Assembly (NCBI GenBank): GCA_963773065.1
Contig: CAVYZN010000023.1
Location: 1 to 64,000, forward strand
From: an uncultured Gammaproteobacteria bacterium
GTDB lineage: Bacteria > Pseudomonadota > Gammaproteobacteria > UBA9214
Direction: 5' to 3'
Length of the DNA: 64,000 bases
Shown: piece after piece, positions 33,481 through 62,449 of the stretch
Position numbering within the stretch: the stretch's first letter is position 1
How the letters are laid out: every line of letters starts with the position of its first letter
The notes under the pieces: model-generated
The model's database searches: none
Seen by the model: the letters and a program-made list of their open reading frames with translations, nothing else
Told to the model about the DNA's origin: nothing
Translations under genes and position numbers: made by a program

Positions 33481-33530
33481 GGCTGCGCTGCTCCCGCACG
33501 GTGTCGCAACTCACCGATATCGATAACTGC

Positions 33531-33756
33531 CTTAACAAAGCCTCATGCCGGGTAAGTCCTGTAGTGACCGTCGGCCGCAGGGACGATGCACAGGGATGTG
33601 CAAGTGTCGCGTGAGGGCACGACTGCAGGGATGCAGGAGGTAGGGTAACGCAGGAGCAGTTACCGAGATGCCCGAGCGACTGCGGCCGTCGAGCGTACAG
33701 GGACGTATTCACAGCGTGTCACGGAAGGATTTACCCGGCATGAGGCGTCTATTAAG
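33531..33756. mobile_element. MITE-like element (~226 bp) with long terminal inverted repeats and internal GGA hairpins
   Basis: Left end CTTAACAAAGCCTCATGCCGGGTAAGTCCT, right end AGGATTTACCCGGCATGAGGCGTCTATTAAG (20 of 21 bp core IR); no transposase. Confidence 0.75.
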
Positions 33757-42538: not shown

Positions 42539-43010
42539 ATGAATATCTCCGAACTACTCAACCAGGACCGGGTTCTGTGCTGCCCGCAGATCGGCAGCAA
42601 GAAACGGTTGCTGGAAAACATCAGCGAACTGTTCGCCAGGAACGCGCCACAGCTTTCCAGGAATGAAATATTCAACAGCCTGATCACCCGTGAAAAACTG
42701 GGCAGTACCGGTCTTGGCAAGGGTGTCGCCATACCGCACGGCCGCATGAGCGGGGCTGGAGCGGCCGGTATGCGCCTTCATCAAGCTCGATCAGCCGATT
42801 GAATTCGACGCGGCGGACGGTCAGCCGGTCGACCTGATATTCGCGCTCATCGTTCCGGAAGACTCCACCGAGGAGCATCTGCGGATCCTCTCCGGCATCG
42901 CCACGCTGTTCGGCAGCCCGGCCTTCTGCAGCGGCATCCGCGACTGTAAAAACGATGCCTGCCTGCTGCAACTGCTCAGCCACAGGGACGTGCAACAGAA
43001 AACCGCATGA
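42539..43010 (+). CDS. ptsN: PTS IIA(Ntr) (frameshift near 42755)
   Basis: SKKRLLE, REKLGSTGLGKGVAIPHGR, then FDAADGQPVDLIFAL in the shifted frame. Confidence 0.92.
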
Positions 43011-43947
43011 GTACCACACTCTCAATCTCCACCCTCCATGACGCCCTGAAGAAGAAACTGGGACTTGAATGGGTGACGGGGGAAGAACATGACGGGCATA
43101 CGATACAGGCGGCAGCGGATGCGGCGGACGAGGTCTCGCTGGTCGGGAACCTCAACCTGATCAACCAGCACCGCATCCAGGTGCTGGGAAGCAAGGAACT
43201 GGATTATCTCGACAAGCTGAAGAAGAACTCGCGCAAGGACGCCATAAGCCAGCTTTTCTCGGGCCAGTCCGATCTGATCATCATCGCCAAGCGCCTGGGC
43301 GCGCCCGAGGACCTGGTAGACGCGGCCATCGCTAGCCGCACGCCGGTGCTGTCCTCCTGCCTGCCCAGCGGGGAAACCATTCAGCACCTGCGTTATTTTC
43401 TCGGCAATTATCTCGCCGAGAAGATCACCCTGCACGGAGTTTTCATGGAAGTCATGGGCACCGGCGTGCTGATTACCGGCGCCTCCAGCATCGGCAAGAG
43501 CGAACTGGCGCTGGAGCTGCTCACGCGCGGCCACCGCCTGATTGCCGATGACGCCACCGAATTTTCACGCGTTGCGCCGGATGTCCTGAACGGCACCTGC
43601 CCGGAAATGCTGCGCGACTTTCTCGAAGTGCGCGGACTGGGCATCCTCAATGTGCGCGCCATGTTCGGCGCCAGTTCCATAAAACAGGACCGTAACCTGC
43701 GTCTGATCATCGTCCTGCAGCAAATGCAGGACGCCGCCACGATGGACCGCCTGCATGGCAGCAAGCGATGCGCACCATCATGGGTGTGGAGATACCGGAG
43801 ATCACCCTCCCGGTCGGGCCCGGCAGGAATCTGTCGGTGCTGGTGGAAGCCGCCGTTCGCAACCACATCCTCAACATAAAAGGCTATGATGCCGGCCAGG
43901 CGTTCATCGAACGCCAGAAACAGCGGCTGGAAAACGTGTCGCGATGA
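43007..43947 (+). CDS. hprK: HPr kinase/phosphorylase (frameshift near 43770)
   Basis: HGVF, GASSIGKSELALEL, LIADD, LEVRGLG, PGRNL. Confidence 0.93.
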
Positions 43948-45562: not shown

Positions 45563-47306
45563 ATGAGCCTGGCGCTGACCGGCATAGGCATTTCCCGCGG
45601 CGTTGCCATCGGCAAGGCCCATATCATCGTGCGCGGGTCCCTCGAGGTGCTGGAAAGCGCCATTCCCCCCCAGTTCATCGAGGATGAGGTCACCCGCTAC
45701 CTGGATGCCATAGCCACCGCCCGCTTCCAGCTCAGGGCGATCCGTGAACGCATCCCGAAGGAAACCCGGGCGGATATCACCGCCTTCATCGATACCTATC
45801 TTTTGATGCTCGATGACGCGACGATCGTAGACATACCCGTCGAACTGATCCGCGACACCGGCTGCAATGCCGAATGGGCGCTGAAACAGCAGCGCGATGC
45901 CGTAGTCGATGTGTTCGAGAAGATGAACGACGCCTATCTGCGGACCCGCCGTGATGACGTGGATCATGTCATCAATCGCATCCTGCGCATCCTGATGGCG
46001 ACCGGCCAGAGCGAACTGCATGTCGAAGGCGGCCTGCACGGCGCCATCGTCCTCGCCGACGACCTGACGCCGGCGGAAACCGTGTTGCTCCAGCACCAGG
46101 GCATCAGCGCGTTCGCGACGGAATATGGCGGCCCGCTTTCACACACCGCCATCCTGGCGCGCAGCGTGCAACTGCCCGCCATCGTCGGCGTGCACGGCAT
46201 CCAGCACTTCCTGCAGGATGGCGAGACGGTCATACTCGACGGCCTGCATGGCGTACTGATCGCGGATCCCGACGAGAACATCCTCGCACACTATCGCGAA
46301 CGCCAGGCCCAGGAGGTGCGGCGCCGCACCGAACTGGCGAGCGCTGGTACAGACTCCGGCCATAACGCTCGACCAGACGCCGATCAGGCTCATGGCGAAC
46401 ATCGAACTTCCGGAGGATATCGAGGTCATCGTCCGGGAAAACACCCAGGGTGTCGGTCTCTACCGTACCGAATTCCTGTTCATGAACCGCTTGGCACCCC
46501 CCGATGAAGAGGAACAATACCGCTGTTACACGGGAGTCATCGAAGCGCTGAACGGCAAGCCCCTCACCATCCGCACGCTCGACATGGGCGCGGACAAGCA
46601 GGTGAACGGCGCCGCAACGAGTGGCCTTTGCGGCGGCAACCCGGCCTTGGGACTGCGCGCCATCCGCCTGTGCCTGAAGGACCTGGGCCTGTTCCGCCCC
46701 CAGTTGCGCGCCATACTGCGCGCCTCCGCTCATGGGCCGGTGCGCATGATGATTCCCATGCTGTCGAACACGCATGAACTGCAGCAGGTGCTGAACCTGA
46801 TCGAAGAGGCCAAACACTTTCTGCAGCGCCAGGGCCTGGCCTTTGACCCCCACATCCCGATCGGCGGCATGATCGAAGTCCCGGCCGCCGCACTCTCCGC
46901 GGCGGCCTTTGCCAGGCGCCTGGATTTCCTGTCCATCGGCACCAATGACCTGATCCAGTACACCCTGGCAATCGACCGCGTGGATGACGAGGTGAATTAT
47001 CTCTATGACCCCTTGCACCCGGCCGTGTTGCGGCTCATCAAGATGGTCATCGATGCCGGACTGAGCGCCGGCATACCGGTTGCCATGTGCGGTGAGATGG
47101 CGGGCGATCCGCTCTATACACGCCTGCTGCTGGGCATGGGACTGAGGGAATTCAGCATGCACCCCACCGCGCTGCAGGAAGTCAAACGCGTCATCAACCA
47201 GAGCAGCATCGACCTACTGGCTCCGCAGGTCGAGGCCCTGCTGCAAAGCGGCGAAGCCGACCAGATCATCGCCCAGGTCGAAGCCATCAACAGCTCCCTG
47301 TACTGA
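45563..47306 (+). CDS. ptsI: PEP-protein phosphotransferase, enzyme I (frameshift near 46345)
   Basis: GGPLSHTAILAR, GVGLYRTEF, NPALGLRAIR, SIGTNDL, CGEMAGD; no N-terminal GAF domain. Confidence 0.9.
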
Positions 47307-47497
47307 GCGCAGTCGACTCCGGCGCCGCCAAACGGGGGGGCTCGCCACCTTCTTCACAATCACCATACCGCGGTAATTGCCAACACGCTGGAGTCCTTGC
47401 CACGCGGTCCGCGCGAAGTCCTCCGGAAGCTGGTCAACCTGGACGTGCGGGGAACAGAGATGGAATTGGATTTCATGGTAACCAGTTATGTAATTTC

Positions 47498-47526
47498 TTG
47501 ACATGTCTAGATTTCTACCATATTCT
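47498..47526 (+). promoter_or_regulatory. Sigma70-type promoter of the defence operon
   Basis: TTGACA (47498-47503), 17-nt spacer, TATTCT (47521-47526); ATG 7 nt downstream. Confidence 0.65.
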
Positions 47527-47533
47527 TCTTTCC

Positions 47534-50157
47534 ATGCTAAGAAGACGATACGAATCTGCGCAGTCTCTCGACGGTGTAATTGATCTCGAACGCCTGCGGT
47601 CCGGACCCATTGACAGCCTTGAACGGGACGCCCGGAAGTTTTTCGATCTCACCTATCTCTCGGAAGACCTACACAAGGTGCTCCGCGGGCTCAGCCAGCG
47701 ATTCAAGGAAGGCGGTCCTGGCACCGTACTTGCCCAGGCGGTAAAGGGTTTGGGTAAGTCCCATACGCTTCTCATGGGTTATCACCTATTCGCAAACCCA
47801 AGTGAAGCGAAAGTTTGGGCAGCAAATGCGGGTTACGACTGGGCACCGCCTGCAGACGCCGAGGTGATCGTCCACAAGTTCACCGATCAGTCCATGCGAG
47901 GCGACGCGCTGTGGATGCTGATCGGACAAAGGCTCGGCCAGAAGTGGAGCGAGAGTCGCCCGCCCGATCTTGACGACTCCGCGCAGCAATCAAGGATCGG
48001 CATCTTGTCCTGATCTTCGACGAGCTGGAACGCGGCATCCAGAATATCGTAAATACTGCGCGCCGCAGCCAGAACATCAGTTTTCTCCAGATGTTGAGCG
48101 AAGAGGCCGCGCGTGATACTGACGTCACGTTGTTCGCGGCGGTTTACGATGGCAACGTGGAACCCGGCTCGACGCTCAAGCGTACGCAACGGATCGAACT
48201 TCATTTCCGCAAGGCCGAGGACCGCGCCTCCATTGTCCGGCATCGCCTATTCGCGGATGCCGACAGCTATGACAAGGAGGCTGCTCGGTCTCTCGTTCGG
48301 TCGTATATCAACACTTGGCGTCGGTTCGGAGTAGAAGTTCCAGATGCCTTCATCAACCGCATGGAGACAACCTTTCCGTTTCTGCCTGACTTGATTGAAC
48401 TGGTGTTTGAACGCATCACGGAGAGTGGCGGTTTTCAAGGAACGCGCAGCGCCTTGGGCCTGCTCGGCACCATGCTCGATGCAGTGGGCGAAGGTGCGTA
48501 TCTCATGACTGCCGCGCACTGCCGCATTACCGACGCGGCTTGCGCCGACCGTCTGCTCGATCTCGATCCGACCGGGACACTCGTTAGCGCCGCTCAGTCA
48601 AACTACCGGGACCTCGCGACACAATCGTATGCCGAGGCCATCGCTTCGTCGGTCTTGTTGGCGAGCCTCGTGCCTGGCGGCCGCGCGGCCGGCTTGTCGG
48701 CCGAGGAGCTGGTGCGACATGTGGTCAAGCCCGGGGACGACCCGAATCAATTTCATGCCGGGGTAGAGGCGTTCAAGAAGTTCGGGACGCGCTTTCACGA
48801 GCGCGAGGGACGTCTGTTGTTCGATCTGGAGGAGAACGAATACGCCAAGGTCGAGCTGGATGCAATCCGGCACAACGACGAGGCCGCGCGCGATCAAATC
48901 GTCCAAATCTGGCGACAGGACGTGTTCCGCGACATGCACCAGTGCGTGGTTTTCCGCGACCTTGAGGAGACGCGGTTTACCCTCCAGGGTTTTTCGAAGC
49001 ACGGCCAGCGGTACATGTTGGCGCCGCGGCGTTCGTCCCAAGAGGAACGTTTCGCCCTTTACCAAGGGCTCGAATTGCGAAACCAGGTCCTGTTGCTGGA
49101 GCCGCGCGACAGCAGAGTGGATCATCTCAACAACGCTGACCTGCGGGCGATTGCCAAGCGACTCAAGGCCTCCAAGCAGCTCGCTGAGTCGTCTACAAAT
49201 GTCGAGCGGCGCGCGAAGTTCGAGCGGACGAGCGGGATCAAACGCAGATGATTCAGCGCGCGCTGAAGCAGGCGGGACTCGTCTACGCTCGGATCGAACG
49301 CTGGGGCGACGAGCCGAGCCAGGTGCGATTTGAGGAGGAAAGCCTGGGGCAGGCCAGCAGCAAGGAAGAGGTATTGAGCTACCTCCGCACGCAGGTCTTC
49401 CGGTTTCGCTGTTCGAGGAACACCTTCGCAAGAACCTGCAAGGTTTGATCGGTCAACGCGTAGAGCAAGTAGATCGTGCCTACCGCAACACGTTGGGATC
49501 CCGAGTGCCGCTGACGGTCGGCATGGTAACTGACGCGCTGCGTGCCTTGGTGGAAGACCGCAACCGGATTCTCGGTCGACAACACCCGAGGGGAAATTTG
49601 CGGCGAGCGCGTGACTCTCACGTACTCGGAACTTGGGCAAGCTGTATTGGCTCAGCAATGGGCTACGAAGATGGACCGACCCGCGGCGGTAGCGCCTTCC
49701 ATTGCTTCGATATCCGCAGATCTCCGCAGGTAGTGAGAGGGTAGCACCGATCGGTGTTGATGTTGGCACAGGCGAGCTTGAGCTTCCTGCGCCCGCTGTC
49801 GTAGCCGAGGAAAGGGCCACGCCCCATTGCCGAAGCCTCGGCGAGCTTCGCCAACAAGTCGCGGTACGGCTAACCGATCTGGAAGAACCGGTCATCCGCT
49901 TGGCACGGTTCACAGTGTTTGCGAACTATCGCAACCAGGAGCTTTCAGGATTAGCCGCGGCGTACCGTGGCGCATTGTCCGGTGCAGGCGACCTGGACGT
50001 TCAGCTCGATATTACCGTACGCGGCCCGATGACGAAGGTGGCTCTGGAGCAGCACTGCGAGAAGTTGCCGAATATCGCGAGCGCTAATTATTCCGCGCGC
50101 TTCAGTGTCGAGGTGTCTTCCGAGGGCCGGAACAGGAAGGAGGAAGCGCTCTTGTGA
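47534..50157 (+). CDS. DUF499/BrxC-like P-loop ATPase (several frameshifts)
   Basis: FFDLTY, Walker A KGLGKSH, Walker B LVLIFDELE, IVRHRLF, FPFLP, GFQGTR; joins ORFs 47498, 48091, 49248, 49445, 49702. Confidence 0.72.
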
Positions 50158-51148
50158 ACACTGCCGCGCTGGATCGTGAACTGCTCGACCACCTCACCCG
50201 TCCTGGCGCGCGCCTGCCGAAGCTTGAACGTTGGTTGTTGGACGAGGTGTGGACACAGGCCGCGTTCGAGTCCGCCAGCAAGTCACCGCAAGCCTACTTG
50301 CAGAGTGGCGAAGGGCAGGTCAACGAGCGCGAGAACCTACTGCGAACCGCAGCGGCATCGTTGTTCGACGAGCTGACCGCAACGCCTGCGCAGGATAGGA
50401 CGGTCGGCGCGTTCTTCGCGCAGAACCAGAAGTCGGCCGCTGTGTTGTTTGATGGGTGCTCCCTGCGGGAGATGCCGCGGCTGCTGGATCTCGCTAAGGC
50501 TTCGCGGCGAGAGGTGTTGGAGCTTGGGTGCAGCCGGCGCCGCCATACCGAGCGAGACAGAGTACTTCGTCTCGGATCGCCTTGGCCTGGGATTGCCGAC
50601 CATCGGTCCGTCGCAGCTTACCGGACGCGCCGAGATGAAACAGCGAAATGTCCGCTTCTACTACTACCGGCAGACCAGCGATCACCACACCATCCAGGAT
50701 GGCGAAGAATCGTTTCCGCTTTGGACGCGGTTCCCGGATCAACGCTACACGGACAGCACGGCGACCAATGTAGGCCATGTTTGACGGGCTTTGGGACGGG
50801 CTGGAACAGACCTGGCGACGCACGGTTCAAGCGGTGCCGCCGGATCGCAAGGTGCTGGTCACGAGCGATCACGGCTACATATTCCTCGGCTCGGGATTGA
50901 GCGACCCCAGTCTCAGGGGCGCGGATCGGATACTGGATGGAAAGCGTTTCCGGGTGTTCGAGCCAAACGAGTCGTTGCCGGCGAGCGGCAACGGCCTGTG
51001 GGTAGATGCCAGCCGCCGGTTGGCCGTGTTGGCGGGGCGGGGGCATAACCGGTTTCAAGGTCCAGGAGCGCAATCCGTCTACCGTCACGGTGGGTTGACG
51101 CTGATGGAAATGTTGACGCCCTGGCTGGTTCTGGGGCTGGTTAGGTAA
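50154..51148 (+). CDS. Short PglZ-like alkaline-phosphatase-superfamily protein (two frameshifts)
   Basis: LFDGCSLRE, PSET, VTSDHGY, HGGLTLMEMLTPW; GTGA overlap with the ATPase stop. Confidence 0.8.
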
Positions 51149-51152
51149 GCCT

Positions 51153-52457
51153 ATGTCATACCGCGAAGACCAACTCCTCTTTTACGAAGGCGACTTGGAC
51201 GCCGTACTTCGCGCACAAGTCGCAAGTGTGAGGGAACGTGTGGATGATATCCCTCGCGATCAGTTTCTTTCGTCGCCAGAAGATACGCTTGTGGAGCACA
51301 TTCGCTCATCCATGGAAATTGAGCCGCTCCAGCTCCATGAAGACGCGATGGTGATGGAGCAGCAGGAAACCAAGATCGACGTCAGCCGCTGGCCTGACCG
51401 TAATGTGTTCCGCGAGCCAGGTCCAATTTACGTGTCTGGCGTGAAGGTCACCGTAACGATTCCCTACTCCGGCGATCCGACTCTCTGGAAGTTGCGCTCG
51501 AATCCGTATCAAACGGTTTTCCCGCGCGGCGTTATCCGCATGCCTGGACGCGATAAAATTGGTCATCTGGATGTTGTCCTTCAGCAGCCGAGCGACGAGC
51601 CCGCGGAGAAGCCGAAACGTGAGCTTGATGACACGCTTCGAGGCATCCGCTTTTATCTGGAAAACCAGAAGCGGCAGATTGAACAACACAACGCGGGTCT
51701 ACCAAATGCAATCCGTCAAGCGGTTCAGGCGAGACGCACCCGACTTCAAGCGCACGATGGCATTGCGCAAGCGCTGAATATTCCTCTCAAACGGCGCGAG
51801 GGTGCGCCGGAGATTCGTCCGATCGCCGTGCAGCGGAAACTGGTGCGTCCACTTCCGGCTCCCCCAAAGGGCGGCTACAAACCGGAACCTGGAATCACCG
51901 ATGACGACTATGATCACATTCTCGCCGTCATCCGGCATGAAGGCAGGACATTCGAGACGACGTCCGGAACCTTCGCTGTTCATGACGAAGAACAGTTGAG
52001 GGATATCGTTCTCGCGCACCTCAATGGCCATTACCAGGGTGGTGCAACGGGTGAGACGTTCCGGCGCAGCGGTAAGACAGATATACGTATCGAAAACGAC
52101 AGACGTGCTGCGTTCGTAGCGGAATGCAAAGTATGGCGGGGCGCGAAAGAGTTGACCGATGCGGTTGGTCAATTGCTGAGCTATCTCACCTGGCGCGACT
52201 GCAAGGCCGCGATTGTGATCTTTAACAAGCACAACGCCGGCTTCTCCGAGTTGCTGCAGAAGGTCCCGGAAACGCTTGCGGCGCATCCTCGGGTAAGAAA
52301 GAAACCCGGGCAACGCACTGATGGCGAGTGGCGTTTCGTCTTCGCCTCGGCTGAAGACGAGGCACGTGAAGTCGTCGTCCATGTGTTTCTGTTCAATCTC
52401 TATGTGAAGGATAAGACCGTCCGAGCAGCTTTTGAGGCAGTTGGGCAAGGAGGTTAA
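51153..52457 (+). CDS. Hypothetical protein with C-terminal PD-(D/E)XK restriction-endonuclease-like domain
   Basis: Intact 434 aa; DEEQLRD, GE, KTDIRI, AECK, QLLSY motif series. Confidence 0.65.
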   Translation: MSYREDQLLFYEGDLDAVLRAQVASVRERVDDIPRDQFLSSPEDTLVEHIRSSMEIEPLQLHEDAMVMEQQETKIDVSRWPDRNVFREPGPIYVSGVKVTVTIPYSGDPTLWKLRSNPYQTVFPRGVIRMPGRDKIGHLDVVLQQPSDEPAEKPKRELDDTLRGIRFYLENQKRQIEQHNAGLPNAIRQAVQARRTRLQAHDGIAQALNIPLKRREGAPEIRPIAVQRKLVRPLPAPPKGGYKPEPGITDDDYDHILAVIRHEGRTFETTSGTFAVHDEEQLRDIVLAHLNGHYQGGATGETFRRSGKTDIRIENDRRAAFVAECKVWRGAKELTDAVGQLLSYLTWRDCKAAIVIFNKHNAGFSELLQKVPETLAAHPRVRKKPGQRTDGEWRFVFASAEDEAREVVVHVFLFNLYVKDKTVRAAFEAVGQGG

Positions 52458-52461
52458 TCGT

Positions 52462-52705
52462 ATGAAACAGAAAGTTGGGACTTTAATTGAGGAAGACGTG
52501 GTGCGCCGGGCCAAACGCCGGGCGGCCAACGAAGGGCGGCCCCTGAGCGACCTGATTCAGGACGCCTTGGAAAGCTATTTGTCCACGACGGTTTTAGAGC
52601 CGGCGAAGCGCGATGCGGCCTACCAGCTTTTCTGCGAGCGACCGATGAAGCTCGCTCCCGAGCAGTTCAAGGCCGTGCTCGAAGAGGACGCGTGGGATTC
52701 TGTGA
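52462..52705 (+). CDS. Ribbon-helix-helix/CopG-like antitoxin
   Basis: MKQKVGTLIEEDVVRRAKRRAANEGRPLSDLIQDAL; AGGAGG SD; reads in frame into the PIN domain. Confidence 0.7.
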
Positions 52706-53208
52706 ACCTCGACGACATTCCAAGCGGCAGTCTGTGCGTGATTGATACAAACGTCTTACTCTATGCCGAGCAGAACGTTTCCGATCAGGCGCAGCGGCTC
52801 ATCCGGCGCTGCGCCCAGGGCGAACTGATCGGCACGCTTCCGCAGACGATTTGGCAGGAGCTGACTCACAAGCTCATGCTCGCCGAGGCCATGACGAAAG
52901 GGCTCATTGGGGGTGGCAATCCGGCCGCACGCTTGGGCAGCAAGCCGGATGCGGTACGCGGATTGAGTCTTTATCGAGCCAAGGTTCAGGCGTTAGTGGA
53001 CCTCGGCCTCGGCTTCGAAGTTTGCACCCTGACCGATCTGACCAAAACCGCCTTCGGGCTGCAAGAGAAGTACGGCTTCTTAACTAACGATGCGGTGATG
53101 CTGGCCGTGGCGATACGACTAAAGGCCGATGCATTGGTATCTACAGATCGTGGATTTCGCTCGATCAGCGATATGGCGGTCTTCTATCCCACAGACCTGC
53201 GGATTTGA
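52702..53208 (+). CDS. PIN domain (VapC-like) toxin
   Basis: VIDTNVL, conserved E, TNDA, STDRGF. Confidence 0.85.
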   Translation: MNLDDIPSGSLCVIDTNVLLYAEQNVSDQAQRLIRRCAQGELIGTLPQTIWQELTHKLMLAEAMTKGLIGGGNPAARLGSKPDAVRGLSLYRAKVQALVDLGLGFEVCTLTDLTKTAFGLQEKYGFLTNDAVMLAVAIRLKADALVSTDRGFRSISDMAVFYPTDLRI

Positions 53209-53209
53209 T

Positions 53210-53986
53210 ATGGAAAAGGCAAGAACGCTAATCGAGCGACTGTTATCTGAAGTGTGCAACTCGGATGGTTCCGCAGCTGTCCAGAAATACAGGTCGCTGC
53301 GAGATGTGGACGCAAAGGTACGGGAATTTGGAATGTTGCTGGGTAGCCTTCCCGATAACTCTCGCACGCTAAGGGAGTCCTTCGAAAAGGATGTGGACTT
53401 TACCGCCAATAGCCGGAGAGTGAGGTTGGAAGCGTTGGCCAATTATTGTCGAACTGTTCTGCGATTTTTGGATAACGGCATTATTGAAAATAAGAAACAG
53501 GTTTTTAAGGGGCCGGTTCTTTCGAAAATAACTGCAGTTATGCCACAGCTCGAAGAGGTTATCCAAGATAGATGGATTGAGGCGCAGAAATGTCAGCATG
53601 CTGGGGCATATCTTGCTGCCGTCATCCTGATGGGAAGCATTTTAGAGGCGCTTCTGTTGTCGAGAGCAACAATGACGCCGGCGGACTGCTATACGGCATC
53701 AAGAGCCCCTAAAGATAAGAACAGCAAAATTCTTGCGGTACAGGACTGGAACCTCAGTAGCTTGATCGAGGTGGCCGCCGAGTGCGGATGGCTAAAGGTG
53801 GATAGAGCCAAATTCAGTCATGCACTGAGGGAGTCTCGTAATGTGGTTCACCCATGGCAGCATGTGGCGCTGAGGGCTGAGTTTGACGAAGCCACATGCA
53901 AGACGTGTTGGCATGTTCTAAACGCATCGGTTGATGACCTGCTTAAGTCGATTTCACAGTCACAGGCCGCCGTGAAAATTACATGA
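53210..53986 (+). CDS. HEPN/DUF4145-like helical protein
   Basis: EAQKC...AYLAAVILMGSILEALL, LSSLIEVA, LRESRNVVHP (R-x3/x6-H); AT-richer. Confidence 0.6.
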   Translation: MEKARTLIERLLSEVCNSDGSAAVQKYRSLRDVDAKVREFGMLLGSLPDNSRTLRESFEKDVDFTANSRRVRLEALANYCRTVLRFLDNGIIENKKQVFKGPVLSKITAVMPQLEEVIQDRWIEAQKCQHAGAYLAAVILMGSILEALLLSRATMTPADCYTASRAPKDKNSKILAVQDWNLSSLIEVAAECGWLKVDRAKFSHALRESRNVVHPWQHVALRAEFDEATCKTCWHVLNASVDDLLKSISQSQAAVKIT

Positions 53987-56900
53987 GCGCCCAACCGGAC
54001 ACCCAAGATTTGAAAATACCTTCCCCGCGCGCCATCGAGGTAGGTTTTCCTATCGTCGAAATCAACCGCCTCGCCGAACCGGAGCGCAACAGCTTCAAGC
54101 CGATCTACCAGATGCACAAGTGGTTCGCGCGGCGTGCCTCGTGCGTGTTTCGCGCCATCCTGCTCGGTGCGCTCAAGCCGGCGTTCAATCCGGACGGCAC
54201 GCCGGTGGATCTTGATGGCGGAGTTCTATAAGGACCACGGCCTCGATCCCGATACGCAGGGCAAGGTGGTGCTCGATCCCTTCATGGGCGGCGGCACGAC
54301 GGTGGTGGAGGCGCTGCGCCTCGGGTGCAAGGTGATCGGCATCGATCTCAATCCGGTTGCCTGGTTCATCGTCAAGATCGAAGTGGAACCGGTGGACATC
54401 GAGGCGCTGAAAAGCGCCTTCGAGCGCCTGGCGGCGCGTCCCGTTGCTTGGAACGGCGGGAAGCCCCTGCGGGAAACGCTCCTCGATCTCTACAGGACCG
54501 AGGTGCTGTCCGGTCTCGACGCGGATGTGATCTACACCTTCTGGGTCAAGCACGCGATCTGCACCGACCCTACCTGCAAGAAGGAAGTGCCGCTCTTCAA
54601 GGACTACGTTGTCGCCGCGAAGGCGCTGTCGGTGAGGTACCACCGCGACGTGCGTCTGCCCCGAGTGTAAGAAAGTCCTTCGACTGGGAAGTGAGTATCG
54701 CCTCACTGATCGCCGATCCGGCGATGATGGTGAATAGCCCCAGGGGCGCGGCGGGCGAAGGCCGACCCACGGCGGTGTGGACGTATGCGCCCGAGCCGCC
54801 CAAGACCGAAGAACAGGCGCGAGACAAGTCTTGCGGACATGACCTGTCCGCACTGCGCGAAGTCCGTGCGCGTGCAGGTTCCATGGGACAAGAAGAAGGA
54901 GCGCAAGAAGGTTCCACTCACGGTGCTGCTCTGTCCGGCGTGCGAAGCTGTATGGCAGTGGCGCGGTCCGTTGCCCGAGGGCGAACTCGCCTGCCCTGCG
55001 TGCAAACATGGCTACGACCCGAAGAAGGGTAACGTGCCGGAGAAGGGTTACTTCCAGTGCCGCTGCGGTAACAAGGACCGGATCATCGAAAGCATCCGCC
55101 TGCTGCCGCAGGAGCAGCGTTTGCCGGTTCGCCCCTATGCGTTGCAGGCATATCTTCCGCCCGAATCCGAAGAGGAATCGCCAGGCGATGGCGAGCAGGG
55201 CGTCGCTGTTCGATGACATGCCACAGCAGGCGGTAACTGCTCGCTCGCCCGCCGCCGAACGAAGGCGCACCTGCTGTTGCCGGAGAACGGCAAGTTCTTC
55301 AAGCGTTGGTCCGCTTCCGATCAGGCTCGGCTGCAACGCGCGGAGATGCTGTGGGAGAAGAACAAGACGGGCCTGCCTTATCCCAAGAGCACGATACCGG
55401 TCGGCGAAAAGACCAAATCGGGCTTGCTCGCACACCACTACAACCACTGGCACGAGATGTTCGCCCCGCGCCAGTTGCTCGCGCTCTCCACGCTGCTTGC
55501 AAGGGATTATGGCGGAGCCGGGCGAGAAGCTGCGGGAGACTGTTGCTGTGTGCGTTCTCGGATTGTGTTGGTAGAAACAAATTATTTCTGTCGGTACTTC
55601 AATGACCGCAATACGATACAAGAGATATTCTCGCGCCACGACTATCAGCCGAAGACTGACGATCGCAGAAGGTAGTGTTTTTGGTGACTGACAGTATCCG
55701 TGGCACCTACCCGCAGATGTTTGGGCGTTTGATAGAAGGCAAGACTTTCAACCGTGAGGCGTTCGACTGGAAACGCAATGCAGGTGACAAGCCGGAAAAA
55801 GTCATCGTTGACATTAGATAGTTGATGGCATGTCTGCAAACCTTAGATTGCACGAACTCAGCAACCTTGTTAACGGTTGATCCCATCTACCCCCAATGTG
55901 TTATTACCGACCCACCCTATGTCGGAAACGTTAACTACTCGAGTTGGCGGACTTCTTTCTACGTCTGGCTGCGGCTTGTTTTGAAGGATCGCTATCTTTG
56001 GTTTGCTCCTGAACACACGCCTAAAGCCGAAGAGATCGTCGAGAATCGGACGCGTGTCAAAAGCGAAGCGGATTTCTACGCCGGGCTTATCTGAAGTCTT
56101 CAAGCGCGCGCATGACTTACTGCCACCCGATGGCGTGCTTGCCTTTACGTTTCATCACACTGATCAAAAGGGCACGGTCTGGGAAGGCATGCTCAAGCCC
56201 TGTGCGACACAGGGTACGAAATCGTAGCGGTCTATCCCGTCCATGGTGAACTCGGAGTCCTCTCTGCACTTGATGGACAAGGAGAACATCTCCTATGACC
56301 TGATCCATGTTTGTCGCAAGCGGCAGGACGAATCCGACGCCGCGTTCCTGGGCCGGTATCCGGCAGGAAGTGCGCCGCCTGGCGCGCGCGGAGCTGGCGG
56401 AAATCGAAGAAGGGGCGCTACGGCAACAAGCCGCTGCCCGAACCGGATGTGCGGCTGATCTGCATCGGCAAGTGCCTGGAGCTTTACAGCGCGCACTACG
56501 ACCGGGTGCTCGACCACGAAGGCAAAACTTACCCACTGCACAAGGCGCTGCAGGACATCGGCAGCATCGTGGACCAGCTCGTCACACGCGAGCGCCCACT
56601 GCCGCCAGAGCTGGAAGACGTGGAATCGCTGACCTATGACGTGGCTGCGCCTGCTCGCGGAGGCCAGGCGCGAAAGCTGAGCGTGGACAGGATCAGCAAG
56701 TATTCGCGGGCGATCCAGGTAAGCACCGACGACCTCAAAAGGGCTGGGCTCATCATCCGCGGGCGTACCGGAAAGCGCGGGCGGACGAAAAAGAAACTAC
56801 GAGGTCAAACAGCCGAACGAGCGTCTCGAACAGGCTCTGCTGGAAAAGCTGCGCAAGGCCAGCCAATCGGCGGCACAGGGCAATGAAACTGCTCGAAGAG

Positions 56901-57157
56901 GCGGCGGACCGCGAGAAGGATTCCACTCGATGGATCTGCTCCATGCCTTGATCGCGTTGGCGGATGCCGGTGAATCGGTGCTGCCCTGGCTCGAGCGGTT
57001 CGACGCCGAGGCGCACGGAGATTCTCGCTGGGCTTACGCTTTGTGCGTGAACTGCGGTCGAGACTGGGTCGCTGCGATAGACAAAGTCGTCGCAGTGATC
57101 GAAGGCGCGCCGCTGCTGCAATTCTCCTCCCCTCCCCCGCGAGCGGGAGAGGGTTAG
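53983..57157 (+). CDS. DUF1156-like adenine DNA methyltransferase with Zn-ribbon inserts (many frameshifts)
   Basis: MHKWFARR, VLDPFMGGGT, IDLNPVA, several CxxC pairs, TDPPY, FTFHH. Confidence 0.85.
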
Positions 57158-57165
57158 GGTGGGGG
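57127..57165 (+). repeat. REP/boxC-like repeat CTCCCCTCCCCCGC..GCGGGAGAGGGTTAGGGTGGGGG
   Basis: C-rich/G-rich hairpin plus G-run tail, overlapping the last codons of the methyltransferase. Confidence 0.5.
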
Positions 57166-57170
57166 CAACG

Positions 57171-57606
57171 ATGGCCGGTTACCTGCTGCTAGAAAGAAGA
57201 ATTCCTGATACCCTCAGAAGCCGGATGGCGTAACGCCAAACGCGGTGCGCATGGGGTTCTTGGATTATCTGCGCGAGCTGCGGAGATGAGGCCGTTCCAT
57301 TTTCCTCGCGGTCACAAGATTCTCGTCGAGGGGATCGAGGACGTGCTGATCGCCACGGGGGAGAACCGCGACGATGTCGCCTCGTACATCGATGACCTGC
57401 TGGCCTCGCGGGCGAACGAATTGGAGCGCATTGGGCGGCTTTGTGCAGATCGTTTTCGAGCGGCGCTTGAGCCAGGCCGACGGACTTCTGGATTGGACGT
57501 CGGTGATATGCGGGTTTCGCTGCGCCGTATCTTCGACTCACCGGCGAAGCAAGTGAGGATCGAGCACGGCAACGAATTTTTCGTAGCGGGGTTTAATCTG
57601 ACATGA
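57171..57606 (+). CDS. Small hypothetical protein (frameshifted) coupled to the helicase
   Basis: ATG at 57171; core ORF 57286..57606; ATGA overlap with the helicase start. Confidence 0.5.
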
Positions 57607-60417
57607 GCGAAGCCATTTCTGACGTACAAGATCATCCAAACCGATGACAGGGTCCGGGTGCGGACGCATCCGGAGTGGGGCACGGGCGAGGTGTTGCGGG
57701 TTTCCCAAGAGTTCGGCGTTTATCAAGCCAAGGTTCTCTTCAAGACGAGCGAAGGGGAACACGTCGAGAACCTGCCGGTGGAATGGCTGGAGAAGACCGC
57801 CGACCTCTGGGAACGTCTGGCGGCCGGTGACTTCGACAGTCCCGAAGATTACCGCATCAAGCAGATGGCGCTGGACATGAGCTACGCCAACACCGGCGGT
57901 GAGCTATCCGCCAGCCGTGTGGATCTGCTGCCACATCAGATCCTGCTGGTGCACGACCTGGTCGGGCAATCGCCGCGGCGCATACTGATCGCCGATGAGG
58001 TGGGTCTTGGCAAGACCATCGAGACCGGCATGCTGATCCGCGAGCTGATTGCGCGCGGCGACGCCAAGCGCATCCTGATCGTGGCCCCGGCGGGTCTGGT
58101 TGAGAACTGGCGCCGGGAGTTGGAAGGCTGTTTCCGGTTGCACTTCGATATCCTGGGAAGAGATTTCCAGGATCACGGCTCGGCCGCTTGGGAACGGCAC
58201 AGCCAGGTCATTGCCTCGATTGATACGCTGAAGCAGCAGCGCCGGTTGCAGCGCCTGCTCGCCGCCGCGCCCTGGGACTTGGTGATCTTCGATGAGGCGC
58301 ACCATGTTTCGCGCACGCGCAGCGGCAAAAAAACGGTGACGACCCAGAATTACAAGCTGGCCGAGGCATTGCGCAACCACACGCGCGATCTGATGTTCCT
58401 CTCGGCGACGCCGCACCAAGGCAACGCTTTTCAGTTCTGGTCGCTGCTCCAGATTCTGGACGATCAGCTTTTCGCCAACCCGGACGCCATTACCCACCAC
58501 CGCGGCTTGTTAAACCGTGTGATGATCCGGCGCACCAAGCGCGAGGTGACCGATGTCTCAGGCAAGCCAATTTTCCGCCGGCGTCTGGTATATACCGAAC
58601 GCTTCTCCCTCGCCCCACGCGAGCGACTAGTTCTACGAGCAGTTGAGCGACTATCTGCGTGAAGGCTACAACGCCGCCGGAATTGATCAGAAGCGCACCA
58701 CCAACCAACAGCGGGCCATCGGGTTTGTGATGGCGACATTCCAGAAGATCATGTCGTCGAGTCCGCGGGCAATCCGTCAGGCCCTGCGCCGCAGGCTGCT
58801 TGTACTGCTTGCGCGTAAGCAATTGGAGCTGGAAGTCAGGCGCCGCAGCACACAAGCGCCTGCCAAGGCGGCGGTGTGGGCCGAGGAGATCCTGCGCATA
58901 CAGGACGAAATGCTGGCCGTCGCCAAGGCGATTCTGGGTGAGGGTTCCGCCACGAATAGCGATGCCGAGGCCTACGTCGGGCGCATCCGGCGTCGCTTGC
59001 AGAAGCGTGAAGAGCAGTTGGAAGTGACGGAGTGGTCGCTGGATGGCGATGAGGAGGGGGAAGAAGGAGTATTTGCCGAATCCAATATCCCGGATGAAAT
59101 TCCGAAGGTGCGTGATTTGATTGCGAACGTCCCCGATGGGCCGGATCGCCGCTTCGAGACTCTGGTGCGCGCCATCAGTGACTTGACGCGGGATAACACC
59201 ACCGAGAGGGTTTGTGATCTTCACGCAATACCGGGATACGCTCGGGTTTCTCGCCGAAGAACTGGGCCGTATCTTCGGACGATCGCTACATCGCGACGCT
59301 TAAGGGCGGGCCGCTGGAGGATAAGATCGCGGCGATGGAGGCGTTCTGGAAGGAAGACGGCGCGCGCTTCCTGATTTGCACCTCGGCGGGCGGCGAAGGC
59401 ATCAACCTGCAGATCGGTCGAATTCTCTTCAATTACGATCTGCCCTGGAATCCGATGGCGGTGGAGCAGCGCATTGGCCGCATTCATCGCTACGGGCAAC
59501 AGGAAACTGTGCAGGTGTACAACCTCTTTGCCGAGGACACGGTCGAGCAGCGGATTTACGACCTGCTCGACCATAAGTTGCAGGAAATTGCCCAGTCCAT
59601 CGGCAAGGTGGACGACCAGGGTTCACCACGAGAGGATTTCCGCAGCGAAATTTTGGGTCTTTTGGGCAGCCGTCCAGATTACCAGGATCTCTACAAGCGC
59701 GCGCTGGTGGATCAAGACTATCGCCGGACGGAGAAGGAACTGGCCGTGATGATCAACGAGGCCAACCGGGCACGGGAAGCATTGGGTGCACTTTCGCAGG
59801 ACCTCACAGGTTTCAATCTGGAGAACTATCGCAAAATCGAAGGCCGGCACACGCTCGACGAGTTAGGCCAGTGGGTGCGCGCGGCGGTGCTTCGTCTGGG
59901 CGGCGGCACCATCCCGGAAGGCGAGTTCTGGACATTCCATACCCCTGAGGCGTTACAGCGCCGGTATCACCTCGCGCCGCGCTACGAGAAAATGTGTTTT
60001 GATCGCACGCTGTCCTTGCGCAGCCGCGGAAGTGAGCTGGGTGGTATCGGGCACCCCTTGGTGGATGCACTGCTCAAGGAAGCGCGGGAGCCGAACTTCA
60101 CCGGCGAGGTATCACATTTGGCAGCCGGAAATGCCATCTGTGCACGATATCTGGTGCAATACGATGGCGAACACGGCCAGATCGCAAGCCGCGTTCTTAC
60201 CCTATGTGGTACTCCCGAAGGTGACATTAAGGTCATTGATCACGTGGGGTGGGTGCTAGGGCAAGATGTTCCAGGCGCCGAGGCCCAACACTTTGACATT
60301 GGAAAGCTCAAGTCGCGCTTCGAGGAATTTAGGAAGAGCGTGATTCTGGAGTGGATCCCAGACCGTCAGAAGCGCGCGCGAGTTACAACAACACCAATTG
60401 GTATTCACGCTGGATAG
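57603..60417 (+). CDS. SNF2/RapA-like SF2 helicase (several frameshifts)
   Basis: LLPHQ, IADEVGLGKT, DEAHH, LSATPH, GGEGINLQ, YDLPWNP, EQRIGRIHRYGQ. Confidence 0.9.
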
Positions 60418-60477
60418 CAGTCATTGATCGAAACGGTCGCGACATGGCACTCCGCCTCTGCGGTGAATCACGCTTTT

Positions 60478-61839
60478 TCACGCGCCGGCAACCGTCATCT
60501 GCTCGATCAGCACCGAGCCCGAACGGATGTTGCCGCGCAGATCGACATCGTTGCCCACTTCGACGATGCCGAGAAACATGTCCCTCAGGTTGCCGGCCAC
60601 CGTGATCGCATCGACCGGGTAGCGGATCTCCCCGCCTTCGACCCAGAATCCGGCCACGCCGCGGGAGTAGTCGCCGGTCACCATATTGACGCCGAAACCG
60701 ATGAGTTCGGTCACCAGCAACCCCGTGTCCATCGCGCGCAGCAGGGCGGGAAGATCCTTCCCGCCGGGATCGATGGTCAGATTGCGCACGCCGCCGGCAT
60801 TGCCGGTCGTCGGCATGCCCAACTTGCACGCGGCATAGCTGTCCAGCACATAACCCTGCAGTATGCCGCCGCTGACGATGTCGCGCGCCTGCGTGGCCAC
60901 CCCTTCATGGTCATACGGCGCGCTGCCCAGCGCCTTTTTCAGCAGGGGCTGTTCGTGGATATGCATGAAACCCGGAAATACCTGCTTGCCCAGGTGGTCG
61001 ACGAGAAAGGAGGCGTTGCGGTACAGATTGCCGCCCTTGACGGCGGAGACGAAATTGCCGAACAGGCCGCCGGCGACATCGGCGGCAAACACGACCGGGA
61101 CCCGGCGCGTCGTCAGGTGCCGGGTTCCCAGACGCTGGATGGTTCGTTCACCGGCCTTGCGTCCCACCGCCGCCGGCGTTTCGAGATCATGATGATCGCG
61201 GGCGGAGAAAAACCAGTGATCCCGCTGCATCTCCTCACCCTGCCTGCCGACCACCGCGCAGCCGATGCTGTGCCGGCTGGTCTTGTAGCCGCCGAGAAAC
61301 CCGTGGCTGCTTCCCATGACACGCAGTCCGGCATGACTGGAGAGCGTGGCCCCCTCGGAATTGACGATACGCGCGTCCACGCCGCGCGCCGCATCCTCGC
61401 ATTCCCGCGCCAGGCCGATGGCCTGCTCGGCGCTGACCGGCCACGGATGATACAGATCCAGATCGGGTATCACCGTGGCCAGGCGGGCGGCGTCCGCCAG
61501 CGCGGCGCAGGGATCGCTGCTCGTGTAGCGGGCGATATCGCAGGCCGCCTTGACGGTGGCGCGCAGGCCCTCCGGCTCGAAATCCGCCGTGCTGGCGGAA
61601 CCCTTGCGGTGATCGAAGTAAACGGTCAGCCCGAGGCCGCGGTCACGGTGATATTCCAGGGTTTCCGTCTCACCGAGGCGCACGGTCACGGAAAGCCCGG
61701 TATCGATGCTGACGCCGGCCTCCACGCCATCGGCGCCCAGTTGCCGGGCCTGCGCGATCACGTCCTGCACCAGATCCTCGAGGCGGGACTGCTCGGGAAA
61801 CGGCGGCTGTGCTTCAGTCTGGATCGTCGACATAGTCAT
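60478..61839 (-). CDS. pmbA: Metalloprotease PmbA (TldE)
   Basis: VTVRLGETETLE, YDHEGV, TTGNAGG, TGDYSRG, TVAGNL. Confidence 0.95.
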   Translation of the reverse strand: MTMSTIQTEAQPPFPEQSRLEDLVQDVIAQARQLGADGVEAGVSIDTGLSVTVRLGETETLEYHRDRGLGLTVYFDHRKGSASTADFEPEGLRATVKAACDIARYTSSDPCAALADAARLATVIPDLDLYHPWPVSAEQAIGLARECEDAARGVDARIVNSEGATLSSHAGLRVMGSSHGFLGGYKTSRHSIGCAVVGRQGEEMQRDHWFFSARDHHDLETPAAVGRKAGERTIQRLGTRHLTTRRVPVVFAADVAGGLFGNFVSAVKGGNLYRNASFLVDHLGKQVFPGFMHIHEQPLLKKALGSAPYDHEGVATQARDIVSGGILQGYVLDSYAACKLGMPTTGNAGGVRNLTIDPGGKDLPALLRAMDTGLLVTELIGFGVNMVTGDYSRGVAGFWVEGGEIRYPVDAITVAGNLRDMFLGIVEVGNDVDLRGNIRSGSVLIEQMTVAGA

Positions 61840-61939
61840 TCCTTCACACGGTGGCGCGATTCTACCGGGCATCACCCGGGCGGACAAATCGGCCTGGAAC
61901 CGCTATCCTTGCAGACCGTAACCGGGAGTCGCGAGGCCC

Positions 61940-62449
61940 ATGCAGGATACGGAATTCGACCAGCCGGAAGCGCCCAGCAAGTCCCGGCGCAAGCGCGACA
62001 TGCTCGACTTGCAGAAGCTCGGCGAGGAGTTGCTCACCTTCACCGACGCTGCCTTGCGGCAGATGGGACTGCCGGAACCGTTGCTCGATGCGCTCGAAAC
62101 CGCCCGCCGGATCACGGCGCATGGCGGACTCCGGCGCCAGTTGCAATACATCGGGAAACTGATGCGCGATCTCGATACCGCTCCCATCCGCTCGGCCATC
62201 GCGTCACGGCGGCAGCAGCAAACCACCCATAGCCGGGCCTTTCACCGGCTGGAATTGCTGCGCGAGGCGCTGATCAATGACATTGATGCCGCTCTCGCCG
62301 GGGTGCTCGAACAATTTCCCGCGGCCGACCGGCAGCAATTGCGCCGACTCGCCCGCCAGGCGCGCACGGAGCGGGAAACCCGCCAGCCCCCGCGCGCGGC
62401 GCGCGCCCTGTTCCGCTACCTGCGCGAGCTGCAGGAGCACGCCGGCTGA
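61940..62449 (+). CDS. yjgA: Ribosome biogenesis factor YjgA (DarP)
   Basis: SKSRRKRDM, RRQLQYIGKLMR, DRQQLR; divergent from pmbA. Confidence 0.94.
   Translation: MQDTEFDQPEAPSKSRRKRDMLDLQKLGEELLTFTDAALRQMGLPEPLLDALETARRITAHGGLRRQLQYIGKLMRDLDTAPIRSAIASRRQQQTTHSRAFHRLELLREALINDIDAALAGVLEQFPAADRQQLRRLARQARTERETRQPPRAARALFRYLRELQEHAG

Follow-up and report, generated by a model that had tools for sequence, protein, structure and literature searches.

A probable Type-3 BREX-Related anti-phage system on a 13-kb island of an uncultured gammaproteobacterium

Results

Nine co-oriented genes form a BREX-Related locus

The window analyzed here is a stretch of 64,000 nt (positions 1 to 64,000, forward strand, of contig CAVYZN010000023.1, GenBank assembly GCA_963773065.1) from an uncultured gammaproteobacterium of the GTDB lineage UBA9214; all positions are window coordinates. 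Gene models were obtained by tblastn and a custom frameshift-aware alignment to homologues, and 27 six-frame fragments of the window were scanned against Pfam and PADLOC profiles (E≤0.01). Nine plus-strand genes were placed by homology between 47534 and 60417, in the order ATPase, PglZ, PDC-S54, a ribbon-helix-helix (RHH) gene, PIN, a 285-aa gene, methylase, a 143-aa gene and helicase, and their junctions are overlapping or very short. Plus-strand fragments of this region matched DUF499/HmaC, PglZ, PDC-S54, PIN and DUF6364, DUF1156 with N6_N4_Mtase and zinc ribbons, and SNF2 with Helicase_C. BrxA, BrxL, PglX proper and DUF3780 found no match among the 27 fragments. As a whole, the locus is best explained as a copy of the Type-3 BR system, the DUF499-centred class of anti-phage systems related to bacteriophage exclusion (BREX-Related, BR), located on a 13-kb island, and we consider this assignment highly probable.

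An earlier note, made from the letters of the sequence, had described a hybrid of BREX and a restriction-like system with a DUF499-type ATPase, PglZ, a DUF1156 methylase and an SNF2 helicase, lacking DUF3780, BrxA, BrxL and PglX. The profile matches bear out the four families as well as the absences. Its eight or nine tight co-oriented genes correspond to the nine genes placed by homology, with short junctions; as assembled, only three whole open reading frames (ORFs) exist, namely PDC-S54, a frame covering RHH and PIN (52432-53208) and the 285-aa gene. The five core genes (ATPase, PglZ, methylase, 143-aa gene and helicase) are split into many pieces in differing frames. The note's inventory captured the four core families and overlooked the 143-aa gene and the conservation of the RHH-PIN pair.

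ATPase, methylase and helicase

Type-3 BR, as the consulted text of its description has it (Rakesh and Krishnan, NAR 2026, PMC12839542), comprises a DUF499 ATPase, a methylase carrying two 4C zinc fingers in a subset, and a nuclease-less BrxHII-like helicase. A stand-alone active PglZ is near-universal and an iSTAND gene is present in 82% of taxa, the class counting 569 taxa (PMC12839542, same portions of text). There, iSTAND denotes a protein with an inactive P-loop and a β-sheet cap insert, without the C-terminal helical bundle.

The ATPase of the island belongs to a BrxC/MtsA-like family of ~870 aa, and its Walker A (GLGKS) and Walker B (IFDELE) motifs are present in the window. The closest homologue (P0001) was 90% identical over a 386-aa piece, with relatives of ~870 aa at full length; after frame correction, 747 of 881 positions (85%) were identical. 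The ATPase of an intact homologous locus (L037) scored 75.4 bits with HmaC and 40.1 bits with DUF499 in PADLOC. With the NCBIfam model DUF499_antiphage it reached E 8e-15 and 53.8 bits against a cut-off of 1200, and Pfam DUF499 was matched below threshold. The ATPase profile had no match at E≤1 among PDB sequences. The DUF499 matches are weak but consistent, and the protein appears to be the DUF499-type ATPase of Type-3 BR.

The methylase family is ~1030 aa long. Motif I (DPFMGGGT), DPPY and four CxxC zinc-finger pairs in an insert region were recognized, and the frame-corrected protein, free of in-frame stops, was identical to that of locus L022 at 734 of 1022 positions (72%). Its intact homologue matched HmaB (153.5 bits), DUF1156 and N6_N4_Mtase. 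This points to an N6 adenine methylase with a zinc-finger target-recognition insert, as in Type-3 BR.

In the helicase, the motifs GLGKT, DEAH and QRIGRIHRYGQ are present in the window, and after frame correction 748 of 936 positions (80%) were identical to the protein of locus L021. SNF2-rel_dom and Helicase_C were its only domains; BrxHI/BrxHII scored 324.9 bits and RapA 203.8 bits. The HmaA profile was covered at positions 99-693 of 1176, leaving its C-terminal third unmatched. Likewise, PLD_Helicase (112.6 bits) and phospholipD_antiphage (161.9 bits, cut-off 1100) were matched in their helicase part alone. Scans of the fragments and of intact homologues against Pfam, PADLOC and NCBIfam found no nuclease domain on the helicase. 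These matches argue for a nuclease-less, BrxHII-like Swi2/Snf2 helicase of the Type-3 BR kind. The catalytic motifs of the core genes are all intact after frame correction.

A stand-alone PglZ and its predicted partner

PglZ belongs to a stand-alone family of ~330 aa whose members are encoded on the same contigs as the ATPases, at adjacent locus tags. The motifs DGCSLRE, TSDHGY and YRHGG are present in the window and are invariant or nearly so in the family, and the frame-corrected protein was identical to P0121 at 298 of 330 positions (90%). PF08665 was precomputed in 22 of the 55 PglZ homologues listed, and the family matched the BREX PglZ structure 9nv3_C at E 9e-4. In a 50%-identity library 347 representatives of the family passed E≤0.001, and 201 passed E≤1e-10; among the matches listed, nearly all members are at most 362 aa long. 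Judged by its motifs, this is a stand-alone and probably catalytically competent PglZ of the kind found in the Type-3 BR core.

The 143-aa gene, 71% identical to its homologue after frame correction, was detected adjoining the methylase gene in 28 loci. A structure model of its product (predicted local distance difference test, pLDDT, 93) shows an alpha/beta core in which three short strands, a beta-sheet insert, precede the last core strands. Walker A is absent from the family alignment. In VIA-align comparisons the top rows were mostly RecA/AAA+ P-loop domains at low Z (at most 4.4), Foldseek of the model returned nothing at E≤0.001, and hmmsearch of the family profile against PDB sequences gave one marginal RecA stretch only. 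The model thus partly supports the protein as the likely iSTAND of Type-3 BR.

A complex of PglZ with the 143-aa protein was predicted with a score of 0.86, the best control reaching 0.01. Three runs were concordant, sharing at least 95% of contacts, with a partner pLDDT of 90. Of 157 solved complexes 116 attained the mark of 0.86, as did 2 of 215 mismatched pairs; these counts apply here only approximately, our own alignments having been used for the prediction. In the L037 proteins the predicted interface joins PglZ residues 8-21 and 62-73 to residues 26-39 and 52-75 of the 143-aa protein. The prediction supports, and does not demonstrate, binding of PglZ to the 143-aa protein, and the predicted pairing may be new.

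Gene order is conserved among homologous loci

One genome per species was scanned with two PglZ peptide patterns, which yielded 55 loci from Nitrospirota, Gammaproteobacteria, Desulfobacterota, Acidobacteriota, Verrucomicrobiota, Planctomycetota, NC10, Binatia and others. ORF clustering and tblastn with the components established a common order: ATPase, PglZ, (RHH, PIN), methylase, 143-aa gene, helicase. All five core genes are present in this order in 28 of the 55 loci, and many of the others end at contig edges. The ATPase gene is immediately succeeded by PglZ in each of the 28 complete loci, with a junction of -62 to +82 nt, and the pairwise identities of the two proteins are correlated (rho 0.91). 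A deleted relic was also found: in a gammaproteobacterial metagenome-assembled genome (MAG), L052:9558-10594 retains the C-terminal ends of ATPase and PglZ, the RHH gene and a helicase fragment, and its PglZ remnant is 90% identical to the query.

The RHH gene matched DUF6364 at E 1e-4, below the Pfam cut-off. An extra base near 52698 joins it in frame to PIN; the contig of a relative is one base shorter at this position. The PIN frame is intact and carries the conserved acidic residues (IDTN, QE, TND, D), its product being identical to the L021 protein at 131 of 171 positions (77%) with zero frameshifts. Among the 46 loci that extend at least 1.2 kb beyond PglZ, 38 contain PIN. Of the eight loci lacking it, five fall into a subclade (L060-L067); the other three are partial loci or remnants. 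Where no cargo intervenes, PIN lies 0-81 nt upstream of the methylase gene. Pairwise identities of PIN correlate with those of PglZ, ATPase and helicase (Spearman 0.83-0.90, 22-32 loci) as core proteins do with one another (0.81-0.91); the pairs are non-independent, and co-divergence of RHH-PIN with the core is suggestive only. As a conserved module of the sampled clade, the RHH-PIN pair may be new.

Among the 28 complete loci, 14 contain inserts of more than 500 nt that separate core genes. The inserts lie between PIN and methylase (7 loci), PglZ and RHH (1), methylase and 143-aa gene (3) or 143-aa gene and helicase (3). Inserted genes encode PDC-S33, PDC-S09, a PARIS-like AriAB ATPase, Lamassu LmuA/C/B, a type IIG enzyme and SIR2-like, GIY-YIG, MazF and DUF3800 proteins. 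Whole systems lie inside four homologous operons: Lamassu LmuA/C/B (L062:8677-12372), a type IIG restriction-methylase (L063:15552-18668), a PARIS-like AriAB ATPase (L023:10037-11869) and an 872-aa ATPase with a SIR2-like partner (L018:11811-15595).

Two cargo genes are present on the island: PDC-S54 occupies the gap from PglZ to RHH, and the 285-aa gene the one from PIN to methylase. The intact ORF of PDC-S54, a PADLOC candidate, matched its profile with 436.5 bits over positions 3-407 of 410, and its product had no Pfam or NCBIfam match. For both cargo genes Atlas gave unnamed clusters; the name assigned automatically to the neighbours of PDC-S54 refers to an Mrr-type endonuclease, a lead only. 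The 285-aa gene is an intact ORF as well; it overlaps the PIN gene, and its true start is therefore probably later than 53129. Pfam, PADLOC and NCBIfam gave no match for the 285-aa protein; its Atlas neighbours are hypothetical, with DUF4145 in 24% of members, again a lead only.

Boundaries of the island and promoter

Upstream of the operon lies the hprK-rapZ-EIIA-ptsI cluster, downstream a convergent gene (60478-61887, minus strand) encoding a complete PmbA/TldD metallopeptidase. Four same-genus genomes (G001-G004) lack the island: alignments end at 47306/47321 and restart at 60450/60474. In these genomes 21 to a few hundred nt separate the ptsI stop from the next conserved gene, and G004, with 21 nt, represents an empty site. 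When 60 relatives were searched at the DNA level, the flanks alone matched. No close DNA relative of the island was present among the 55 fetched loci either (best ~74% identity). A plus-strand ORF at 60424-62232 (602 aa) was rejected as an additional operon gene; it is an antisense shadow of pmbA/tldD in GC-rich DNA and has no family match. Further upstream, a stretch of ~230 nt (~33515-33750) has dozens of matches in same-genus genomes (70-100% identity) and represents a dispersed small repeat.

The single sigma70 promoter claimed by the earlier note was recovered (Table 1). Its -10 hexamer ends 8 nt ahead of the ATPase ATG at 47534, the position where residue 1 of ATPase homologues aligns. 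Judged by this spacing, the transcript of the operon may be leaderless or nearly so.

Table 1. Features of the island and indels in its genes, the latter from frameshift-aware alignment
Feature	Position	Strand	Evidence or context	Indels	Indel sites
13.2-kb island	47307..60473	.	between ptsI stop (+) and pmbA/tldD stop (-)		
Sigma70-like promoter, TTGACA-17-TATTCT	47498..47526	+	motif search, 1 site vs 0.2 expected in shuffles		
DUF499-type AAA+ ATPase	47534..50157	+	homology, Walker A/B	6 (5 robust)	robust, single- or double-base: near 47978, 49228, 49398, 49598, 49725
Stand-alone PglZ	50154..51148	+	homology, motifs	2	+1: near 50538, 50773
PDC-S54 cargo gene, 434 aa	51153..52457	+	PADLOC profile		
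RHH / DUF6364-like antitoxin-type gene	52432..~52698	+	weak DUF6364 match		
PIN (VapC-like) nuclease, ~170 aa	52693..53208	+	PIN match, acidic residues	0	
285-aa cargo gene	53129..53986	+	ORF, no family matches		
DUF1156 / N6_N4 adenine methyltransferase	53983..57157	+	Pfam/PADLOC matches, motifs	22	
143-aa inactive P-loop-like protein	57171..57606	+	alignment and structure model	5	
Swi2/Snf2 helicase, ~935 aa	57607..60417	+	SNF2 and Helicase_C, motifs	4 (3 robust)	robust, +1: near 58630, 59210, 59286

Frameshifts in the core genes

The alignment contains 39 indels in the five core genes (10.3 kb), of which ~37 are robust, and 32 of the 39 are single extra bases. In the methylase gene, 19 of the 22 indels are one extra base, two are two extra bases and one is a missing base. 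Homopolymer slippage was rejected as the cause, the sites not being homopolymers. After frame correction there was no in-frame stop in ~3,300 codons, and identities to orthologues were normal (71-90%). The frame repair called for by the earlier note thus restores stop-free genes with intact motifs; the note had seen that frameshifts were present and had missed that their number and kind point to assembly error.

Contigs of a groundwater metagenome represent alleles of relatives rather than of the source strain (5% of sampled words were present); 204 contigs of this one metagenome belong to related BR alleles, mostly 85-95% alike. At ten of the core-gene indel sites, and also at 52698, single-base indels distinguish relatives' contigs from the window. 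These sites include 49228, 49397, 49598 and 49724 in the ATPase gene. One base fewer was found at 54211, 54653 and 54672 in the methylase gene and, in a relative's contigs, at 59208 and 59281 in the helicase gene. In the flank (31-47 kb), ~11 window-specific non-triplet indels were seen relative to all or most of four congeners, and nine of them are a single extra base outside homopolymers. Relative to four same-genus genomes, ptsI (45563-47306) is frameshifted at 46340 and hprK (43007-43879) at 43768, by a single extra or missing base.

Across the whole MAG, a three-periodic Markov frame-tracking hidden Markov model called 965 frameshift-like switches in 2.69 Mb called coding. This count is rough: the tracker is unvalidated, recovered 5 of the ~11 flank sites as frameshifts and 2 more as 'boundaries', and under-calls in the island. 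Many ORFs of more than 900 aa survive in the MAG, and the errors are therefore patchy. Hot spots of frame switches were located at C8:203-208 kb, C26:94-99 kb, C9:234-240 kb and C27:150-153 kb. Three of these hold a type I restriction-modification system (HsdR, N6_Mtase), an AcrB-family pump in at least three pieces, and transposases with a DruA-like piece; C27:150-153 kb had no Pfam match. A further hot spot coincides with a second BR-type system, on contig C32 (~62000-74531). This is a true Hma (Type-1 BR) locus with HmaA, HmaB and HmaC matches of up to 570 bits, lying in many frames (HmaC in four pieces, HmaB in at least five, HmaA in at least six).

We regard the core-gene frameshifts as probably single-base errors of a poorly polished assembly rather than decay, because nonsense codons are absent, divergence is normal, single extra bases prevail and housekeeping genes are affected as well. 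The actual core genes are probably intact. Two points speak against this. Both BR-type loci of the genome are broken. Indels are also unevenly spread, with ~3.6 per kb in the five core genes, ~0.35 in cargo and PIN (2.8 kb) and ~0.7 in the flank. Plain random error does not predict this pattern, which is consistent with a decaying core and cargo genes maintained by selection; it could also stem from polishing with reads that came from related BR alleles.

The alternative is that the frameshifts are real, so that a decaying, non-functional Type-3 BR remains in which PDC-S54, RHH-PIN and the 285-aa gene are kept by selection. The contrast of ~37 indels in 10.3 kb of core with at most one in 2.8 kb of cargo and PIN favors such decay, as do the likewise split Hma locus on C32 and the L052 remnant, from which it is clear that such decay occurs in this system. 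Decay nevertheless leaves unexplained the complete lack of nonsense codons, where by our own estimate so many neutral indels should be accompanied by several to many nonsense substitutions, and it does not account for the lack of excess divergence or for the intact catalytic motifs. Bacterial pseudogenes show a deletion bias, the opposite of the one-base insertions seen here, and similar insertions occur in the housekeeping genes ptsI and hprK and in the AcrB gene. We therefore consider decay unlikely.

Discussion

The gene set of the island matches the published Type-3 BR, and the locus is for this reason not a new hybrid: the class has already been named (Rakesh and Krishnan, NAR 2026, PMC12839542). 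The novelty that the earlier note had considered possible is thereby withdrawn, since the note itself had taken a match to a named model as the result that would overturn it. Its broader picture of a BREX-related, methylation-based system with embedded back-up genes agrees with the Type-3 BR description as far as the consulted text goes, judged from sequence. In the portions of that paper used here, the features shared with the locus are the ATPase, the zinc-finger methylase (with two 4C fingers, as in a subset of Type-3 BR), the nuclease-less helicase and the stand-alone PglZ; the 143-aa gene is a candidate counterpart of the small inactive P-loop gene. The locus differs in that RHH-PIN stands between PglZ and methylase, that cargo occurs in 14 of 28 complete loci, and that this copy is frameshifted as assembled.

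Some observations count against the assignment. The ATPase matches DUF499 models only weakly (below the Pfam cut-off; 53.8 vs 1200 bits in NCBIfam), and the iSTAND assignment of the 143-aa protein is a low-Z fold likeness (Z≤4.4) with an empty Foldseek search. In the consulted text, Type-3 BR neighbourhoods are said to be without conserved stand-alone nucleases, back-up nucleases being lacking or confined to limited instances (PMC12839542), and the frequency of PIN found here (38/46) disagrees with that statement. Full-text searches of the literature library found no experiment on Type-3 BR.

The related classes were weighed as alternatives. In the consulted text, Type-1 BR equals Hma, and Type-2 BR equals Gao_RL, with DUF3780 and an HKD helicase (PMC12839542). 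One of these two with an unrelated PglZ gene next to it would be a very improbable reading of the locus. Hma profiles do give the best PADLOC scores for ATPase, methylase and helicase, as the PADLOC run suggested by the earlier note revealed together with the full-length PDC-S54 match, and the NCBIfam models of the Gao_RL type, DUF499_antiphage and DUF1156_antiphage, are weakly matched. At the true Hma locus of this genome the scores are much higher, HmaC reaching 371, 314 and 218 bits there against 32 bits here. PglZ, moreover, always comes next to the ATPase in the complete loci (28), and the two proteins diverge in step (rho 0.91), whereas Type-1 BR consists of three genes without PglZ. The helicase carries neither the C-terminal restriction endonuclease of Type-1 BR, the C-terminal third of HmaA being unmatched, nor the HKD/phospholipase D (PLD) part of Type-2 BR, which was unmatched as well. 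Neither the 27 window fragments nor the core proteins of L037 gave a DUF3780 match. According to the part of the PADLOC description that was available (PMC8565338), Hma shares the trio of helicase, methylase and ATPase with the locus; it lacks PglZ, and its helicase usually bears a C-terminal nuclease.

Canonical Type-3 BREX is the least credible reading, for although comparable parts are present (a BrxC-like ATPase, a PglXI-like methylase with a weak PglX/PglXI match of 67.5 bits, a BrxHII-like helicase with 324.9 bits, and PglZ), PglZ is a bare domain of 330 aa without the long N-terminal region of BREX PglZ, neither BrxA nor BrxC was matched in the window fragments or the intact homologue, and the ~870-aa ATPase matches DUF499/HmaC and not the BrxC models. 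The likeness to Type-3 BREX (BrxF, BrxC, PglXI, BrxHII, PglZ, BrxA) still extends to the same functional classes and a RapA-like BrxHII-type helicase, in so far as the consulted text of PMC12839542 describes that system. The presumed role of PglZ as an effector with an inactive P-loop partner is also common to both in that text. BREX, by contrast, has a long multi-domain PglZ, BrxA and an ATPase of the BrxC clade.

By analogy, MANTIS, a Type-2 BR system, may serve as the nearest experimental guide to how Type-3 BR could work. The parts of the MANTIS preprint drawn on here report hemimethylation of asymmetric 6-bp sites and a methylase whose activation needs the AAA+ ATPase and a small partner (bioRxiv 10.64898/2026.09.23.753747). 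MANTIS/Gao_RL and the locus share, on this partial comparison, a DUF499 AAA+ ATPase, a DUF1156-type adenine methylase and a helicase. MtsB (DUF3780 in the NAR paper, DUF3870 in the preprint) and the PLD nuclease-helicase of MANTIS, as given in those portions, have no counterpart in this locus, which instead contains PglZ, the 143-aa protein and RHH-PIN.

From homology with BREX and MANTIS, the following steps can be proposed for the family. The DUF1156 methylase would mark the host's DNA by methylating adenine within a short site that its target-recognition insert, with the zinc fingers, reads, and the DUF499 ATPase would act as scaffold and switch for both methylation and restriction. The SNF2 motor would translocate on unmarked DNA. 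The stand-alone PglZ, a putative metal-dependent phosphodiesterase/nuclease, would be the effector, bound and controlled by the 143-aa protein. The VapBC-like RHH-PIN pair, fixed between PglZ and methylase in this clade, would probably function as an addiction module or as an RNase toxin held in reserve. Junctions of the core genes appear to be insertion slots for unrelated defence cargo, here PDC-S54 and the 285-aa protein. Whether Type-3 BR of this clade is a seven-gene machine, with RHH-PIN as an integral, co-evolving part and a complex of PglZ and the 143-aa protein formed through N-terminal helices of PglZ, seems to us evenly balanced.

The ~37 frameshifts of this copy resemble gene decay and call for caution; they are probably assembly noise, hundreds of similar sites being present in the MAG. 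No new class is added to the published ones; what goes beyond the paper is an RHH-PIN pair fixed in one large clade, a predicted PglZ/143-aa complex and cargo slots in the operon. If the seven-gene organization holds, a BREX-like methylation system would carry a built-in RNase toxin, contrary to the statement in the consulted text that, PglZ apart, no conserved nuclease belongs to it (PMC12839542). Type-3 BR, so far purely computational, offers the least complex case of a bare PglZ domain as presumed effector, and it could help to reveal the role of PglZ in BREX.

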